Source: Chitinophagaceae bacterium (lineage in GTDB: Bacteria > Bacteroidota > Bacteroidia > Chitinophagales > Chitinophagaceae). From it: 64,000 nucleotides of DNA. The translations under genes and the position numbers were made by a program. Shown piece by piece: positions 483 to 7,703 of the stretch (positions within the stretch are counted from its first letter, which is position 1; the number at the start of each line of letters is the position of its first letter). A model generated the notes under the pieces. That model was not told the DNA's origin. It made no database searches and saw only the letters and a program-made list of their open reading frames with translations. The DNA lies in assembly GCA_020437365.1 (NCBI GenBank), contig JAGQWM010000004.1, forward strand, positions 3,568 through 67,567. The letters run 5' to 3'.

Positions 483-620
483 TCTTTTTAATTTTTTTAT
501 CAATAGCGTTAAAATTAAGTCATTCTAACCGTACATTTTCTTATAAAAATTGTAACTTACTTATAATTCTTTCCCACTGAAATTTTCCTGAATCAATTTA
601 TAACTTCTAAACCTAAAGCT

Positions 621-3600
621 ATGAAGCAATTCAGTAAATTTTGCCTGTTGATTTTTTCAATAGGTTTTTTCAATTCATCAATTGTGCAGGCACAAAAATC
701 TTCTGCCAAAAAATATATACAGGAAGATTTTCACCTCAACGAAGGAACACTATCTGTGTTCTTACCTTCAGATCTTCGTGCCGGAGATGTTATTTCCGGA
801 ACCGTAGTTGTATGGCCCGACGGGAATAATGAAAAACAAAAAAACAGAAATGCCAAGTCATTAAAAAAATATTCCTTAGCCGTTGGTGGTATTCCAATTC
901 AGTTTGAAAAATCTTCTACCAACAATATTCATTTTTCCGGAAAATTAACAAAATTGAATATGCAGGTTGAGAACGAAAAAATCGGTTCCTTTTCTTCAAA
1001 AGCAATTCCGGCATTGCCAATTCCTCAACAACCTGTAGGCTTTGGTATGCCCACACATGCTTTGACTGATGCACCATTCAGCATTTCCGGGGCTTTCGAT
1101 GGCGAAGCGGCGAATACTGTTTGCCGTCTCGATGGAAAAACAATTGAAGTATTGGCCGAATCACCGCGACAAACAATTTGCCAGATGCCGGCAGCTACCA
1201 GCGGTGCACATGAATTGTCGGTAGAAGAAAACGGGCAATCAACAACCAAAAATATTGCCGCCGTGAATATGAATCTCAGTACCGGCAAATTGAATTTACA
1301 AAAAGGTGAAAGCACATTTGTGAATGTAGCGATTTCGGGTTTGCAAAATTTACCCGGCGATGCTACACTAACGGTAACCAATACCTCCACCGGAACGGTA
1401 ACCATGCAAGGAGGCAATGCACAAATAATTCCTATCACGCCGGCGGCCGCGGAATCAACCGGTAATTTTTCGCGACGCTTCAACCTGCAAAGTATTAAAA
1501 CAGGAAGTTTTACTGTAAGTGTTGATCTCGATCTTCCTGCTTCAGACAATACATCTCATATCGGTACCGCTTCAGCCGCTTTGTGCAATTGTTATATCAA
1601 CGAGCATAGTTATTTATTACCACCATCTATTTGTGCTTCACTCGGTGGAAGTGTAAACACTCCAGCAGAAAATACAAATACCACGGCTCCCATTGAATCG
1701 GTGAATCCGCCGGTCGTACAATTTTCTCAGCCGGAAGAAATAAATGCCGAAACAGGTCCCGTGAATTTACAATTGTTGGCTCCTGACAATGATATAGCTG
1801 CAGTTATTTTTTCGGACCGGCATGTTGCCGATAAAGACTGGACACCTATTGGTACAGCTACGCAAGATGGTAACAATTGGCGTTATGATTGGTTGGCTCC
1901 GGTAGGCAATGATGGAGAACATATTGTAAGAGCCAGAATTGTCAGTAAGAATAATGTAGTAACAGAAAGATTTATTAATAAAAATATTCAACTCAATCCA
2001 TCTTCTATCAATCCCTTGCCCGGTGAAAATATTGCATTGACCATTACCAGTAGTCAAATACGAGATGCCGATTGGAAAGTAAAAGGATTGGCCGAGAAAC
2101 TACGTCAATTACAGGAAAAACTGGATAAGCTGCAAAAAGAATATAATGACCTGAAAAACCAGCAAGCAGAAAATACAAATATGGCCAACGAGTTGGAGGA
2201 AATTGATAAAGTCATTGAAAAAATTCCGGGTTTGTATAAAGACTCTTTACAAAAACTAACCGATTCGTTAAATAATCTCAAGAAAAAGCTACCCAAAAAA
2301 GTAGATACAGATGCCTTGCAAAAAGCGGCTAATGATGCAGCACAAAGAGCAAAAGATTGTAAAGACAGGTTGGATAAACTGAAACAAGACAGGGATAAAG
2401 CCAAAAAAGATTTAGACGACCTCAATAAAAAAATTGAAGACTTACTGAACCAAATGGATCAATTGCACTTGGGAAATAATTGGGTAGGCGGACATGGTTA
2501 TCATGCCGATGGAGGATTCTGGTATGGCTATGTGGGCGATGAGCGGTCCAATACAAATATTTCGCCGCAGGCAAATAATCTCGCCAACCAACTCAGGGCA
2601 TTGAAGCGGCCACAAAACGAAGCCAATAACAGGTTGAACAATCTCAATAATGATATTAAAAACGCTGAAAATGATTGTGATAAACTGCAAAAAGAAAAAG
2701 AAAAAGCAGATGAAGCTTTAAAAAACGGGAAACAACATGATGCCGTTGAAACACAAATCAATGAACTGGACAGGCAGATAAAAGATTTGATGTCGTCATT
2801 AGAAAAATGGTGCGCTGCACATCCCGGCGTTTGCAATTTCGATCCTGCACTACCGGAAAGCCCTACTTCACCCCAAGCATTGCAGGCTTATCTTAATAAA
2901 CTCAATGAAATAATCGAAAAGAAAAAACAGAAAGAAAAAGATCTGAAAAATGATGCTGCACAAAATGCAACAGATGCTGCCGGAAAAAAAGACAATATAG
3001 ATAATGCAAATGGTGATAAAGAAAAACTGGAAGGTGATAAAGCCAAAGCACAGGAAGAAGCTGATAAATTGAAAGCGGCCAGAGAAAAACAATTGGAAGA
3101 AGAAAGAGAAAAACGCCGCAAAAAACAAGAAGAAGAAAAAATTAAAAGAAATGCGCCCAAGCCTGCGCCTACTTTGCCTGAACCCATCAACCCCAGTGAA
3201 AAACAAATTAAATACCAGGCCATTAGTTTATTCCGCGGTTTATACCGTGATTCATGGGTGAAAAACGGCCCTTGCCATTGTACAACAAAAGCATTGGCAC
3301 TATCCAATAATACCAACCAGGCTGCTACGCAACTTGTATTCAATATTGGGCTGGGTGTCATTTTTGCTCCGCTGGAAGCTTTTCCGGGATTATCGTTGGC
3401 TACCAAATTGGGCTTAGGTGCTGTCAAAGCATTGGGCAGTGCTTTATATGGCGGCGAAGATTTTACTAATGAACTGGCCAAAAATTTATTCAACGTCATC
3501 GGTGGTGAAATTTTTCCCAAGCTGACCGGAAGTGATATAGCCGGCAAGAATATTAACAAATTTGCCGGAAAAGGATTGGATGCCTTATTGAAAGACGAAG

Positions 3601-3812
3601 GTGTCAAATCTTTTAGTTGGGAAGGTGAAACGACTTTGCGTAATTGCGGAAAAGTAAAAGGAAAAACAACAACACTTTTTAATGCCAACACCGGTTGGGT
3701 AACCATGCTTATCAAAATAGAAGGATGTCCACTGGTTGTGGTAAAATATAAAGTCAATAAAGATGGCGTTCCTTTATCGAATCCTACACCTGTAGTCAAA
3801 CAAATCAGGTAA
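621..3812 (+). CDS. Large secreted hypothetical protein (1063 aa): signal peptide, IPT/TIG- and Ig-like domains, long coiled coil, hydrophobic C-terminal domain
   Basis: Long uninterrupted ORF. Sec signal ending VQA|Q; TIG-like segment (PFSISGAF...VLAESPRQTICQMP...G.HELSV); Ig-like segment (WTPIGTATQDGNNWRYDW...GEHIVRAR); K/E/D/Q-rich heptads from about aa 480 to 850. Confidence 0.85.
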   Translation: MKQFSKFCLLIFSIGFFNSSIVQAQKSSAKKYIQEDFHLNEGTLSVFLPSDLRAGDVISGTVVVWPDGNNEKQKNRNAKSLKKYSLAVGGIPIQFEKSSTNNIHFSGKLTKLNMQVENEKIGSFSSKAIPALPIPQQPVGFGMPTHALTDAPFSISGAFDGEAANTVCRLDGKTIEVLAESPRQTICQMPAATSGAHELSVEENGQSTTKNIAAVNMNLSTGKLNLQKGESTFVNVAISGLQNLPGDATLTVTNTSTGTVTMQGGNAQIIPITPAAAESTGNFSRRFNLQSIKTGSFTVSVDLDLPASDNTSHIGTASAALCNCYINEHSYLLPPSICASLGGSVNTPAENTNTTAPIESVNPPVVQFSQPEEINAETGPVNLQLLAPDNDIAAVIFSDRHVADKDWTPIGTATQDGNNWRYDWLAPVGNDGEHIVRARIVSKNNVVTERFINKNIQLNPSSINPLPGENIALTITSSQIRDADWKVKGLAEKLRQLQEKLDKLQKEYNDLKNQQAENTNMANELEEIDKVIEKIPGLYKDSLQKLTDSLNNLKKKLPKKVDTDALQKAANDAAQRAKDCKDRLDKLKQDRDKAKKDLDDLNKKIEDLLNQMDQLHLGNNWVGGHGYHADGGFWYGYVGDERSNTNISPQANNLANQLRALKRPQNEANNRLNNLNNDIKNAENDCDKLQKEKEKADEALKNGKQHDAVETQINELDRQIKDLMSSLEKWCAAHPGVCNFDPALPESPTSPQALQAYLNKLNEIIEKKKQKEKDLKNDAAQNATDAAGKKDNIDNANGDKEKLEGDKAKAQEEADKLKAAREKQLEEEREKRRKKQEEEKIKRNAPKPAPTLPEPINPSEKQIKYQAISLFRGLYRDSWVKNGPCHCTTKALALSNNTNQAATQLVFNIGLGVIFAPLEAFPGLSLATKLGLGAVKALGSALYGGEDFTNELAKNLFNVIGGEIFPKLTGSDIAGKNINKFAGKGLDALLKDEGVKSFSWEGETTLRNCGKVKGKTTTLFNANTGWVTMLIKIEGCPLVVVKYKVNKDGVPLSNPTPVVKQIR

Positions 3813-3841: not shown

Positions 3842-3866
3842 GAAGGCTTCATTTTTTGAAGCCTTC
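3842..3866. terminator. Perfect 10-bp hairpin after the 1063-aa gene, probable terminator
   Basis: GAAGGCTTCA-TTTTT-TGAAGCCTTC; the U-tail is poor. Confidence 0.55.
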
Positions 3867-3891
3867 TCCATTTGGGCTCAGAGCAATTGCT

Positions 3892-3899
3892 TACATTTG
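3892..3899 (+). promoter_or_regulatory. Bacteroidota sigma70 -7 element for mutL
   Basis: TACATTTG matches TAnnTTTG; 23 nt lie between it and the GTG start. Confidence 0.7.
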
Positions 3900-3922
3900 T
3901 CAGTTCAGTAAAGAAACAGAGA

Positions 3923-5758
3923 GTGCCAGATAAAGTAACCTTATTACCCGACAATATCGCCAACCAGATTGCAGCCGGAGAAGTCATACAGCGGCCTGCC
4001 AGTGCTGTCAAAGAGTTACTCGAAAATGCAGTAGATGCCGGAGCCACATATATACAATTAATTGTTGCCGATGCCGGTAAATCTTTAATTCGGGTGATTG
4101 ATAACGGCAGCGGCATGTCGGAAACTGATGCCAGGATGTGTTTCGAACGACACGCCACATCCAAGATAAAAGATATTGAAGACTTATTTCATATCCGCAC
4201 TATGGGCTTTCGTGGCGAAGCCTTGGCTTCCATTGCTGCCGTGGCGCAGGTAGAAATAAAAACCAAAAGAGAAGAAGACGAAACAGGTGTTTGTATTGAA
4301 ATAGAAAATAGTGTTGTAAAAAAACAAGAACCTGTAGCTACACCAACCGGCACCAACCTGGCCATGAAAAATTTATTTTTTAATGTGCCGGCCCGAAGAA
4401 ATTTTTTGAAAAGTAATGCAGCCGAAATGCGACATATCGTTGAGGAATTTACACGGGTAGCCATGGCATTTCCTGAAATACTTTTTACGCTGACACATAA
4501 TGATCAGCAGCTTTTTCATTTAGAACCGGGCAATTTAAAACAACGGATTATTCAATTGTTGGGCAATGCATACAAAACAAAATTAGTAGCGGTAAAAGAA
4601 GACACCGACTACATGAATATTTACGGTTTTGCAGGCAAGCCTGATGCGGCTAAAAAAACCCGGGGCGACCAGTATTTTTTTGTCAACAATCGTTATATCC
4701 GCAGTGCTTATCTGAACCATGCGGTGATGAATGCTTTTCAGGATACCATTCCCAAAGATGTTTTTCCGGCTTATGTTTTATTCATCGACCTCGACCCGAC
4801 TGTCGTTGATGTCAATGTGCATCCCACCAAACAGGAAATAAAATTTGAAGACGAAAAAATTATTTATGCATTTGTACAGGCTGCTGTAAAACATGCTTTG
4901 GCACAATTCAGCGTTACGCCCACTTTAGATTTCGACCTTGATGCTACGATTCAACAATTACCATCCGTATCGCAGCCTTTTACCGAAGAAAAAAAATCGG
5001 CAGCAGCTGCCAGTTCTATTTTTAAAGGATTTAGCCAAAAGCATCAGGCACATTTTATTGAGAAAACTGAAAATACTGACCCGAAAGCTATCGGATTGAA
5101 GCACTGGAAAAGTTTTTATGATGATTCGTATGCCGATAACCTGGCGTCAAATCCCGAAAAACCAATTCAACATTTACCTTTCGCTCATCGCTCTGCTGCT
5201 GATTGTAAACAATTGTTGAATACGTATATAACTGTTCCTTCAGCCGATGGGTTTCTACTCATTCACCAACAGGCGGCACATGAAAGAGTTTTGTATGAAA
5301 AATATTTAATGGCCAATAAAATCCATCCTATTGCTTCGCAAAAAACGATGTTTCCCACGACAGTGGAATTGCCTCCGGCCGATGCAGCCATCATGCAGGA
5401 AATAACCGACGACCTTCATTTATTGGGATTCATCATTGAGCCATTTGGCAGAAATGCATTTGTGGTTCAAGGCTCACCAGCCGATGTAGCACAAGGCAGT
5501 GAAAAACAAACGATAGAAGATTTATTGGAACAATATAAAAATTTCAGTAGCGAAGTAAAATTTTCATCTCGTGAAAAAATTATCCGTAGCCTGGCCAAAC
5601 AACAAGCCATTAAACCGGGGACTTCGCTTTCTGTTACTGAAATGCATCAATTGATTGCTGATTTATTCGATTGTGAAATGCCTAACAGCACTGCCGATGG
5701 CCAACCCACTTATTTATCTTTTAGCAAAGAACAACTGGAAAGGATGTTTGGTAAATAA
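3923..5758 (+). CDS. mutL: DNA mismatch repair endonuclease MutL
   Basis: IAAGEVIQRPASAVKELLENAVDAGA, DNGSGM, RHATSKI, GFRGEALASI, DVNVHPTKQE, HQQAAHERVLYE. Likely GTG start at 3923 (ORF track starts 3872). Confidence 0.97.
   Translation: MPDKVTLLPDNIANQIAAGEVIQRPASAVKELLENAVDAGATYIQLIVADAGKSLIRVIDNGSGMSETDARMCFERHATSKIKDIEDLFHIRTMGFRGEALASIAAVAQVEIKTKREEDETGVCIEIENSVVKKQEPVATPTGTNLAMKNLFFNVPARRNFLKSNAAEMRHIVEEFTRVAMAFPEILFTLTHNDQQLFHLEPGNLKQRIIQLLGNAYKTKLVAVKEDTDYMNIYGFAGKPDAAKKTRGDQYFFVNNRYIRSAYLNHAVMNAFQDTIPKDVFPAYVLFIDLDPTVVDVNVHPTKQEIKFEDEKIIYAFVQAAVKHALAQFSVTPTLDFDLDATIQQLPSVSQPFTEEKKSAAAASSIFKGFSQKHQAHFIEKTENTDPKAIGLKHWKSFYDDSYADNLASNPEKPIQHLPFAHRSAADCKQLLNTYITVPSADGFLLIHQQAAHERVLYEKYLMANKIHPIASQKTMFPTTVELPPADAAIMQEITDDLHLLGFIIEPFGRNAFVVQGSPADVAQGSEKQTIEDLLEQYKNFSSEVKFSSREKIIRSLAKQQAIKPGTSLSVTEMHQLIADLFDCEMPNSTADGQPTYLSFSKEQLERMFGK
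5080..5094. repeat. 15-nt near-perfect palindrome apparently inserted in-frame in the mutL linker
   Basis: CCCGAAAGCTATCGG; its core CCGAAAGCTATCGG is one mismatch from the perfect palindrome CCGATAGCTATCGG. Removing it converts T-D-P-K-A-I-G-L-K-H-W to T-E-L-K-H-W. Confidence 0.7.
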
Positions 5759-5774
5759 ATGCAATTTATTGCAA

Positions 5775-5806
5775 GTCATTCCGGCATTGCGCCGGAATCT
5801 TTTTTT
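5775..5806. terminator. REP-like palindrome/terminator between convergent mutL and lipoprotein genes
   Basis: GTC-ATTCCGGC-ATTGC-GCCGGAAT-C followed by T7. Confidence 0.7.
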
Positions 5807-7535
5807 ATCTTGTACGTCGTATTCTAAATGCCCCGTTAATAGACTCAACAATGTTGGGATTATATGTTTCTTCTATATACTTACCTGAATATGTGCCTTC
5901 AAAAAATTCTCCTATTTGATTTGGAAAACGTGAAAGAGTTACATTAAAAGGAGGAACAATTGTATAATGAGCAAACTCCCTTTCAAGACGCATATACGTT
6001 ACAGGATAAATACCTGTTGGGTTTAACTGAAAAACCAAAGTTAGGCCATCAGCTAGACTGGCTATACCAGAAACTCCAGCAAAATCTGCGTTGAAAATAT
6101 CTCCTTCAAACCTAATAAACGGCCATTGATCATTTAAAACTGTATTGTTATATGAAATAAACTGAAAGGTTGTATCGCCACAAGCTGCAATATTTCCGGT
6201 GTTTGTAATGGGTGAAACAATTGTAAATGATTGAGGCAAACTTTGTCTTGAATCTTCTTCATCAACAGCAATTACAGTACAAATAGTTGGAACAGGAGTT
6301 ACACATTCCGATAGCCCTAAACTAAATTCACCATTCGAATTAACTTGAGCTGTCTGACTTTTATTGCCATAATTGATTATTGCATATCCATTTGTAACTT
6401 TTTGTCCCGAACATTTTATTAATTTGCCTTGCACTGTAGCAATGACAGGGTTATTTGCAGCTATTGTACCCAAATTAATGTCGCCACTGAAAGGACCAAA
6501 ATTCTCTGAATAAATCACGTTTCCACATACATTCAAAGCTTCAATTAATAATGGTTTATTCATAGGATAGTATAAATTTACTTGACCCAAAGAGTCTGTA
6601 AATCCCCAAACTGTTGTTTGCTCTCCCACAACGCTTATCCTAACATAATTATAACTAAGCGGTCCTCCAAATTGATCAATAAATGTCGCAGATAAAACTC
6701 CAGCTACTAATGGAGTATCACAATTCCAAGTTGTAAAATGTGACACTGCTCCTACATATTTATCTCCATTTTTTATAGCTGTTCCTTCTTCTTGCCAGAT
6801 TCCGGTTACTTCATCCACATACCACATACTTATTGTTGCAGGAGCCGATGATTGCACTGCAGATGGAATGGCTGTTGTTAGTGTTGCTGATTTGCTTTTT
6901 GCAATTTGCAATTTTTCACCTGATGGTGATTCCAGCTCTACCGCTAACATGCCATAAGACGCAAGTACAACCTTGTTTCCGTTTTTATCTTTGGCTAAAA
7001 AAGAACCCGGTATTGTTTTTGAAATATCAGGTCTTGTCGGATCTATGTATGCTGCATATACATTCACATCTCCATTATACACACCACCACCCGATTCTAA
7101 CGCCACTCCATTTGCAGGAAATTCAATCTTAGTTCCATTCGAAAGTGAAATTATTCCACCTGAACTATTTGTAATAGTTCCTGCAAGTTGTTTATTGACA
7201 AGTATGATTTCAATATTATTAACGCTGGTTGTCGCATTAAACACCCGATAAGTTTTAAAATATCCTTGCCTCTCGGCTGAAACAACTGTTTCTTTTTCAT
7301 TGAGCGTTGCGTCATTAATTCTAAAAAAACCTTTTACATCAGTCAAAGCAGATTTTATTCCAATAGTTATTTTAACATCAACAATTGGATTACCAGCTCC
7401 ATCCGTTACTTTACCTTTTACCACGCCATTAAATGTATTGGAACCATATACTCCAACTCCGGGTACATCGTACTTATGGCAATTCAATGCCAGTAATGCA
7501 ATTAAAATTATTAAAAAAGAATAACGTTTGCACAT
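5805..7535 (-). CDS. AT-rich putative lipoprotein with a carboxypeptidase-regulatory-like N-terminal domain and a CILP/astroprincin-like central domain
   Basis: Probable start MCKRYSFLIILIALLALN|C (lipobox); VKGKVTDGAGNPIVDVKI domain; LASYGMLAVELESPSGEKLQI...W..DE.TGIWQEEG...VSHFTTWNCD motif. Sampled 60-nt lines give 27-35% GC versus about 43% in mutL. Confidence 0.75.
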   Translation of the reverse strand: MCKRYSFLIILIALLALNCHKYDVPGVGVYGSNTFNGVVKGKVTDGAGNPIVDVKITIGIKSALTDVKGFFRINDATLNEKETVVSAERQGYFKTYRVFNATTSVNNIEIILVNKQLAGTITNSSGGIISLSNGTKIEFPANGVALESGGGVYNGDVNVYAAYIDPTRPDISKTIPGSFLAKDKNGNKVVLASYGMLAVELESPSGEKLQIAKSKSATLTTAIPSAVQSSAPATISMWYVDEVTGIWQEEGTAIKNGDKYVGAVSHFTTWNCDTPLVAGVLSATFIDQFGGPLSYNYVRISVVGEQTTVWGFTDSLGQVNLYYPMNKPLLIEALNVCGNVIYSENFGPFSGDINLGTIAANNPVIATVQGKLIKCSGQKVTNGYAIINYGNKSQTAQVNSNGEFSLGLSECVTPVPTICTVIAVDEEDSRQSLPQSFTIVSPITNTGNIAACGDTTFQFISYNNTVLNDQWPFIRFEGDIFNADFAGVSGIASLADGLTLVFQLNPTGIYPVTYMRLEREFAHYTIVPPFNVTLSRFPNQIGEFFEGTYSGKYIEETYNPNIVESINGAFRIRRTR

Positions 7536-7703
7536 ATTAGTCTCGGTTGTGGTTTTTGCCTTTAAAGTTAACTTTAAAAACAATTATCGGCAATTCATAA
7601 GACAGTTTATATTTTATAATTGCTGCTTTTGTATATCTTTTTGAAAACCAATACGATTATTTGATTTTTATTTTTTTACTCCTAGAAAATATCAGGTATA
7701 TCA

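Follow-up and report, generated by a model that had tools for sequence, protein, structure and literature searches.

An exported Chitinophagaceae protein as one tail type of a polymorphic superfamily with a conserved N-terminal module

The gene considered here encodes a 1063-aa exported protein of a Chitinophagaceae bacterium and occupies positions 621..3812 (+), stop codon included, of a 64,000-nt stretch of contig JAGQWM010000004.1. This whole stretch is called the window; positions given without a locus name are window coordinates, and the features of the gene lie on its plus strand. Sequence comparison indicates that the protein is one tail type of a large and undescribed polymorphic superfamily, in which a conserved N-terminal part is followed by tails of many kinds. 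This account of its architecture and evolution is held with high confidence. A further proposal, that the protein is an exported effector with a conserved docking module and a head acting on a foreign membrane or envelope, is plausible but tentative.

A first-pass annotation, made from the DNA letters alone, had described the gene as encoding an uncharacterised secreted protein with Ig-like and coiled-coil regions. The open reading frame (ORF) indeed starts with ATG and is the sole long frame in its place. A word-indexed search recovered 33 proteins from Chitinophagaceae, Tenacibaculum, Oceanihabitans and Mariniphaga, nearly all of 1040-1100 aa and alignable over the full length at 32-97% identity; these homologues are either unnamed or misnamed from their coiled coils, for example as CwlO-like or TolA-binding proteins. 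Scanning of genomes added 18 further loci in metagenome-assembled genomes of Chitinophagaceae, Flavobacteriaceae, Prolixibacteraceae and Sphingobacteriales. The ratio of nonsynonymous to synonymous substitution rates (dN/dS), calculated against three alleles of 97, 78 and 73% identity, is 0.10-0.15 overall and 0.06-0.10 in the C-terminal end domain. Together with the full-length homologues, these values show that the ORF is more than a product of chance, and the gene is real and constrained by purifying selection. The family is also rare, being present in 11 of 201 Chitinophagaceae genomes and in 3 of 401 Bacteroidota genomes sampled. Collections of phages, plasmids and viral contigs contained no relative, and a phage or plasmid origin is therefore rejected.

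No family had been recognised in the first-pass annotation, and this still holds for both sequence and fold. Full-length assignment to a characterised family was sought with Pfam, NCBIfam, PADLOC, PDB and Foldseek, and none was found. Apart from a borderline TIG match, Pfam, NCBIfam and PADLOC yielded nothing for the whole protein or its pieces beyond noise from the coiled coils (SMC, Rad50, LmuB, JetC), and PDB sequence and profile searches with the protein and three alignments gave nothing significant. A profile match to klebicin C (E 0.018) is below significance and represents coiled-coil noise as well.

The superfamily is defined by its N-terminal part. An exhaustive profile search, in which representatives are clusters at 50% identity and the match threshold is E<=0.001, yielded 2161 representatives, 878 of them with E<1e-30. 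Among the best 150 of these 2161 matches, lengths range from 286 to 1549 aa, and most share only residues 1-310 with the protein studied. By this sequence evidence, the first ~310 residues, that is, the signal peptide and three beta-sandwiches (the N-module), head more than 800 protein clusters. The complete N-module is present in 206 of 224 collected proteins. The sequences behind it are of at least 49 unrelated types, as the last 200 aa of 185 proteins with tails of at least 100 aa form 49 BLAST clusters. Most of the superfamily comes from Chitinophagaceae, with further members in Flavobacteriaceae and Prolixibacteraceae.

The largest tail cluster is the end domain of the protein studied. 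This cluster also joins short forms of ~500 aa, in which the end domain comes directly after the N-module (hhalign probability 60.7%, E 8e-5 over 68 columns; blastp of protein P0135 against P0219, 28% over 149 aa). The second cluster comprises 31 proteins of 1205-1465 aa, and all of them (31/31) carry HExxHxxxxxH, a metzincin-type zinc motif that looks enzymatic; the third is the type represented by P0050 and P0058. When Pfam was run on 32 other members and neighbours in six protein sets, PKD was the only domain recognised in the tails. The unit of stalk and end domain, in turn, is also found behind other N-termini (P0046, P0034, P0082, P0069, P0080).

Two side observations concern the other tails. 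Behind each of the 1380-1405-aa N-module proteins of the HExxHxxxxxH cluster lies a related gene, 286-357 aa long and weakly matching TPR (loci L038:10156-11046, L023:9782-10642 and L032:3524-4597), and, judging from this arrangement, the follower may be the cognate partner of that tail type. The C-terminus of P0087, which belongs to another tail type, contains a His...Cys pair (IGHGDE ... VLGCSLG) that by eye resembles a peptidase of the caspase/CHAT type, and in which Pfam finds nothing.

A homologue search with comparison of gene neighbourhoods, suggested in the first-pass annotation as a check, revealed a family whose chromosomal slot is filled, empty or differently filled among relatives. 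The gene is divergent from a GH3/beta-lactamase-fold gene upstream, as described earlier, and its downstream neighbour is mutL. This slot holds the same tail type in the window and in nine other loci. In L025 and L035 it is occupied by the P0058/P0050 type, with a different hairpin and end domain, and in L036 by an 855-aa N-module protein together with an extra 546-aa gene. The slot is empty in three same-genus genomes and in one genome of another Chitinophagaceae genus, where a flank gap of 84-233 bp, with no gene, separates GH3/beta-lactamase from mutL (L039:8667-8783, L040:8392-8476, L041:8740-8824, L042:2545-2778). A second, hypervariable slot lies beside a short-chain dehydrogenase (SDR) gene and carries N-module genes of 527, 650, 746-780 and 1379-1384 aa (L023:3302-9753, L031:6569-8152, L033:6313-8655, L034:5069-7384, L037:6001-7953, L038:6001-10140), with two such genes in tandem in L023. 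The SDR neighbour was considered as a functional partner at this second slot and rejected as plain synteny. Conserved neighbours were absent beyond one syntenic Chitinophagaceae clade, no small neighbour was shared in 20 loci, and the gene for P0004 (73% identical) sits elsewhere, outside the GH3/mutL slot. The earlier description of a stand-alone gene is thus accurate, in that it has no conserved partner beyond that clade.

Recombination still swaps tail segments between alleles. Nucleotide alignment with the 97%-identical allele in L027 and uneven synonymous divergence (dS) delimit a patch at 2871..3470 (L027:3976-4575), with 110 mismatches in 600 bp; the remaining 2592 bp of the gene hold 21, and the flanks 1 in 1075 bp. 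The patch therefore holds 110 of the 131 differences, while the gene outside it is 99.2% identical to L027. It spans the fourth helix of the coiled-coil region, the Pro-rich hinge and the end domain's first half, and is a recent recombination import from an allele of ~82% identity.

The architecture was modelled with AlphaFold2 on a 25-sequence alignment, and the full-length model has a mean predicted local distance difference test (pLDDT) of 77.6 and a predicted template modelling score (pTM) of 0.35. After the signal peptide, the N-module (aa 25-310, 693..1550), delimited by the model, Pfam and profile searches, is predicted to contain beta-sandwiches at ~30-130, 146-221 (TIG-like) and 222-308. 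The beta-sandwich domains that had been read from the sequence correspond in the model to strand-only blocks at 32-128, 146-221, 231-304 and 367-456. Pfam TIG (PF01833) scores 20.1 bits over residues 159-209 of the whole protein against a gathering cut-off of 20.9, and 24.4 bits once residues 1-320 are scanned alone. This borderline but real-looking match, together with the modelled beta-sandwich, is in keeping with the TIG-like domain of the first-pass annotation. The N-module is followed by a Cys knot (aa 318-345, 1572..1655; element 322-340 in the model), in which the alignment shows C322, C324 and C338, the previously noticed CNC...C patch, to be invariant. The next domain, D4 (aa 364-457, 1710..1991), is the expected Ig-like one; it has a weak Big_7 match in Pfam and corresponds to the last of the modelled strand blocks. 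The 50 best Foldseek matches listed for the full-length model are generic tandem Ig/MG arrays, such as those of complement C3/C5 and titin. As had been stated, no beta-barrel is present, at least in the AlphaFold2 model.

The central part of the protein is a predicted four-helix antiparallel coiled-coil region (aa 477-844, 2049..3152). It measures 368 residues from the start of the first helix (H1) to the end of the fourth (H4), in agreement with the ~370-aa heptad-rich region noted before. In the model, H1 covers residues 477-556, H2 563-618, H3 648-733 and H4 751-844, so that the helix lengths are 80, 56, 86 and 94 residues and the connectors have 6, 29 and 17. These helix lengths and short connectors imply an up-down-up-down bundle, a topology deduced from the lengths and not from coordinates. 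In such a bundle, one end would bring together the H2-H3 connector, the start of H1, which in the model follows the Ig domain, and the end of H4, which leads through a Pro-rich hinge (aa 845-859, 3153..3197; sequence and alignment) to the end domain. The H1-H2 turn and the C731...C738 loop would be placed at the far end. The bundle would then be a projecting spike of ~13 nm and no spacer between the two ends of the protein. Of the extended stalk proposed in the first-pass annotation, the elongated multidomain exported protein and the Pro-rich linker are therefore retained, but the linear 370-residue stalk is not, as the helix lengths imply a folded-back bundle.

The H2-H3 connector is an aromatic/Gly/His beta-hairpin (aa 619-647, 2475..2561; alignment and model), with strands at 621-627 and 633-639 and the motif W.GG.GYH.DG.FWYGYVGDE. 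It is flanked by C580 and C686 (2358..2678), both invariant in the alignment. C580 precedes the hairpin by 41 residues in 25 of 25 alignment rows, and C686 follows it by 47 residues in 22 of 25. This pair is a probable disulfide staple across H2 and H3. The H3-H4 turn (aa 734-750, 2820..2870; alignment and model) is closed by the near-invariant C731 and C738. Given the bundle topology, a single head would be made up of the hairpin and the end domain. Consistent with this reading, both are replaced jointly in the alternative tail type of P0050 and P0058. The hairpin (619-647) and the end domain have majority-residue fractions of 0.76-0.84, versus 0.46-0.58 for the N-terminal domains.

Two distant resemblances of the hairpin were also recorded. 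Profile positions 620-683 align to residues 19-83 of influenza HA2, a stretch comprising the end of the fusion peptide and helix A, at E 0.027-0.98 and 10-15 bits; the matches all concern one protein family, are sub-significant and serve as a lead only. By eye, the hairpin is also like a single cell-wall/choline-binding repeat, although this resemblance is not significant.

The end domain (aa 860-1063, 3198..3809) was delimited by the alignment and two models as an orphan alpha+beta domain. Helices are predicted over residues 860-993, followed by a four- to five-stranded beta-sheet over 995-1045. The four Cys attributed to the C-terminal domain by the first-pass annotation, C885, C887, C1009 and C1036, proved to be invariant. 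When modelled alone, with 18 sliced homologues, the domain reached a pLDDT of 79.4 and a pTM of 0.79. Foldseek found no relative of this model, the best E being 0.055 in PDB and 0.041 among the viral folds of BFVD; Pfam and NCBIfam found nothing in aa 846-1063, and the best PDB profile match had E 0.56. The end domain is, as modelled, a confidently predicted fold with no solved relative. A search with residues 860-1063 gave 45 clusters, essentially all of the ~1060-aa architecture.

Within the end domain, hydropathy, both models and the alignment mark a hydrophobic Gly/Ala-rich segment (aa 903-946, 3327..3458). Its maximum 19-residue Kyte-Doolittle value is 1.6, its pLDDT is the lowest in both models, and its hydrophobic character is kept in divergent relatives. 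A constitutive transmembrane anchor at this position was judged unlikely, since the segment contains two Pro, one Glu and two Lys and the domain models are compact; such an anchor would also split the four Cys of the domain across the membrane. As a separate observation, a 66-aa frame in Chitinophagaceae G072 (L026:6559-6759, minus strand) matches only end-domain residues 917-977 and, from its sequence, looks like a relic of a decayed copy.

The signal peptide (aa 1-24, 621..692) had been predicted to be a Sec signal cleaved at VQA/Q, the slash marking the cleavage site. In support of this, Gln25 is at least 90% conserved among 25 homologues, which agrees with the Q-rule of Bacteroidetes, according to which Gln stands at position +1 of signal peptidase I (SPI) substrates (PMC5837995). 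The signal peptide and the Gln at +1 point to Sec/SPI export of the protein. A lipobox of the form [LVI][ASTVI][GAS]C was looked for at the end of the signal peptide and is absent: the peptide ends in SIVQA/Q, and its lone Cys, C8, stands after S-K-F and is not conserved among homologues. Type A (TIGR04183) and type B (TIGR04131) C-terminal domains (CTDs) belonging to type IX secretion systems (T9SS) were searched with NCBIfam models, and neither matches the protein at E<=1. The genome itself encodes SprA, so that a T9SS is present, and a TIGR04183 search of it found 27 other CTD-bearing frames, the frame of this gene not being among them. The absence of both a lipobox and a recognisable T9SS CTD, noted in the first-pass annotation, is thus maintained.

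A constant front, unrelated tails, fixed slots with variable content and recombination together form a signature of interaction with other organisms, and for this reason the N-module is read as a docking or delivery module and the head as an effector. According to this proposal, the N-module would attach the protein to a conserved partner in the envelope or in export, and the up-down bundle would bring the hairpin and the C-terminal domain together as one head. The head, as the effector, would bind and perturb a membrane or envelope polymer of another cell. Its action would resemble that of a pore-former or colicin, while sparing the envelope of the producer. A target unlike the producer's envelope would explain why no immunity gene is needed. 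The membrane-active mechanism, taken by itself, is somewhat doubtful. In a more far-reaching version, the N-module would represent a new Sec-dependent delivery class in Bacteroidota, acting via an export partner and being the counterpart of TANFOR, TPS or PAAR-type leader domains, and the tail a new effector fold that inserts into membranes or fuses them. Immunity would be unnecessary because the targets would be, for example, membranes of protist grazers or of other phyla. This version is distinctly unlikely.

Several observations weigh against an effector that acts on foreign membranes. Pfam and NCBIfam recognise no toxin domain. No immunity gene was found, mutL being the next gene after the stop codon and no lineage having a small neighbour that is conserved; this tail type is therefore without the immunity partner that is a hallmark of polymorphic toxins. 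Each tail type is conserved in sequence, with no residue-level sign of an arms race. No known outer-membrane route is visible, the protein having no lipobox and, despite SprA and 27 CTD-bearing cargos in the genome, no CTD. Moreover, segment 903-946 carries E919, K929, K936 and two Pro, its hydropathy is just at the transmembrane threshold, and it could simply be buried core. Finally, the bundle topology and the predicted contact between hairpin and end domain are deduced from helix lengths in a full model with a low pTM.

Among described systems, the closest case to the pattern of this family is TANFOR, a class of polymorphic toxins of Bacteroidetes for which secretion by the T9SS in the absence of a CTD has been proposed (Jana, Salomon and Bosis 2020, PMC7073777). 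Both groups consist of Bacteroidota proteins with a Sec signal peptide and no classical secretion tag. However, the N-module described here is not TANFOR, there is no known toxin domain, and this tail has no downstream immunity gene; the genes reside in fixed slots flanked by housekeeping genes, not beside T9SS cargo genes. The TANFOR model TIGR02542 has no match in the protein (E<=1) or in its genome (E<=0.01), although the control genomes were equally without a match, so that the model was not seen to function. A TANFOR-type immunity gene, located within ~50 bp downstream on the same strand, is not present, as a hairpin and then mutL follow the gene. TANFOR membership was rejected because of the missing TIGR02542 match.

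The wider group of polymorphic toxins, such as CdiA, Rhs and MafB (Zhang et al. 2012, PMC3482391), shares with this superfamily a constant N-terminus with recombining C-terminal cassettes, content that varies among related species, and, in the present gene, a recombination patch in the 3' part. A constant N-terminus joined to unrelated, recombining tails is thus observed here, but a recognised C-terminal toxin domain is not. Additionally, a recognised trafficking domain, an immunity gene, an orphan cassette array and a known toxin fold are all missing.

Two kinds of pore-forming toxin are similar only in how they might work. Colicin Ia-type proteins likewise have a long antiparallel helical hairpin, with N- and C-terminal functional domains at one end, and a C-terminal domain of ~200 residues with a hydrophobic helical segment. 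No colicin was matched in Pfam, and none is listed among the 50 top PDB hits that Foldseek gave for the end domain. To our knowledge, colicins have no signal peptide and always an immunity gene. ClyA, Hbl, Nhe and XaxAB are alpha-pore-forming toxins built as helical bundles with a beta-hairpin head. The likeness to them lies in a long helical bundle whose small head is a beta-hairpin, and in a hydrophobic element, rich in Gly and Ala, that the soluble form keeps shielded, whereas the hairpin described here is aromatic and polar, not hydrophobic. ClyA-type proteins are not among the 50 Foldseek matches listed per model, but Ig arrays dominated the search with the full-length model, and the bundle was queried only as part of it. 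Xenorhabdolysin B (NF033927) in NCBIfam scores 15.9 bits against a cut-off of 40.

The first-pass annotation had left adhesin, toxin and periplasm-spanning tether as options, and the toxin-like and adhesin-like ones are now ahead. As a variable surface adhesin or receptor, the protein would be anchored by the N-module, and the swapped tails would be non-toxic heads that bind prey, substrates or partners or serve as phage decoys, the aromatic/Gly/His hairpin binding glycan in the manner of single cell-wall-binding repeats. This alternative is a serious one, if somewhat unlikely. Ig/TIG/PKD-type domains and a rod-like bundle are typical of adhesins, no immunity gene was found, and slot occupancy varies among related species. 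Furthermore, the combination of a conserved N-terminus with variable C-terminal heads is that of the mosaic adhesive trimer (MAT) fibres of the predator Bdellovibrio; within one genome family, these trimers have a conserved N-terminal anchor, a rod and C-terminal tips that are chimeric and variable (Caulton et al. 2024, PMC10769870). The likeness to these fibres is limited to the conserved N-terminal region, the rod and the variable C-terminal part; there is no sequence relationship, and a monomeric fold-back bundle is predicted here. Against this alternative, no known surface-export signal (CTD or lipobox) is present. Its putative binding head is the most conserved part of the protein, with 50-96% identity across three families, which is unusual for a tip under host or prey pressure, and the metzincin-type motif in other tails looks enzymatic and not adhesive.

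Less probable still is a periplasmic envelope protein, in which a coiled-coil hairpin on a membrane partner would control or carry a peptidoglycan-acting C-terminal domain, or which would serve as a tether. EnvC, PcsB and CwlO are exported proteins of this type, in which a functional domain at the C-terminus comes after an antiparallel coiled-coil hairpin. The protein studied resembles them in export, coiled-coil hairpin and C-terminal domain, and the names CwlO-like or TolA-binding given to some homologues echo these factors, although they are coiled-coil mislabels. In favour of such a role, Sec export without an outer-membrane sorting signal defaults to the periplasm in Bacteroidota, the end domain contains four invariant Glu, and one Chitinophagaceae clade has neighbours acting on peptidoglycan, namely a GH3/beta-lactamase-fold fusion and an S13 D-Ala-D-Ala carboxypeptidase. 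That neighbourhood, however, is conserved only by descent and differs for P0004 and for other families. LytM, CHAP, NlpC/P60 or lysozyme-like domains were matched neither by sequence nor by fold. The gene is accessory: it is missing at the same site in three same-genus genomes and from ~95% of the sampled Chitinophagaceae, and so it cannot belong to the core envelope machinery. The variable occupancy of the slot argues in the same way against a housekeeping periplasm-spanning tether.

It is very improbable that the last ~70 residues, the small beta-sheet subdomain, form an unrecognised sorting domain of a T9SS (or other) cargo: a T9SS is encoded, TANFOR toxins are proposed as CTD-less T9SS substrates (PMC7073777), and this beta subdomain is found again at the very end of tails that otherwise differ, including the ~500-aa short forms, but both CTD models are without a match, most tail types of the superfamily have no such subdomain, and in the end-domain model it appears Cys-stapled and tightly integrated with the helical part.

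By every defining feature tested, the protein is no member of TANFOR, T9SS cargo, colicins or cell-wall hydrolases, and membership in the ClyA-type toxins gained no support from NCBIfam or from the Foldseek matches listed. Its N-module is undescribed and its end domain an orphan fold, while the general kind, that of polymorphic secreted proteins with a conserved front and variable tails, is known. If the polymorphic effector proposal is true, a second class of such conserved-front and variable-tail proteins, so far undescribed, exists in Chitinophagaceae and in some marine Bacteroidota. The scale of this group is considerable, as it exceeds 2000 clusters at 50% identity, almost none with any Pfam annotation. 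The fixed slots between housekeeping genes offer a natural experiment, in which the same neighbours enclose either an empty site or three different cargos. Additionally, a homologue is encoded by a cultured Tenacibaculum strain (P0027), which opens its localisation and activity to testing. Should the proteins be only structural or adhesive, the annotation of a large dark family would still be useful.

The surroundings of the gene provide some minor features. In the ORF map, an intergenic region of 117 bp (504..620) separates the gene from the divergent GH3/beta-lactamase gene, and it contains no exact TAnnTTTG, the Bacteroidota -7 promoter motif, upstream of the gene. Downstream of the stop codon, the perfect hairpin reported earlier is present at 3842..3866 (+), with a 10-bp stem and a 5-nt loop (-22.3 kcal/mol, z = -4.58). 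It has no T run and is not flagged by the consensus scan, which demands one. Between the stop codon and mutL there is no ORF of at least 80 aa, only this hairpin and then mutL. The TTG start listed for mutL at 3872 is probably too early (region 3872-3950): MutL homologues have 601-612 aa versus 628 aa for the listed frame, and a -7-like motif, TACATTTG, lies at 3892-3899, inside that frame. Farther downstream, an uncharacterised 592-aa ORF at 5805-7583 (-) matches only CarboxypepD_reg, at 29.2 bits and so below the cut-off of 32.3, and has a counterpart downstream of mutL in L028.

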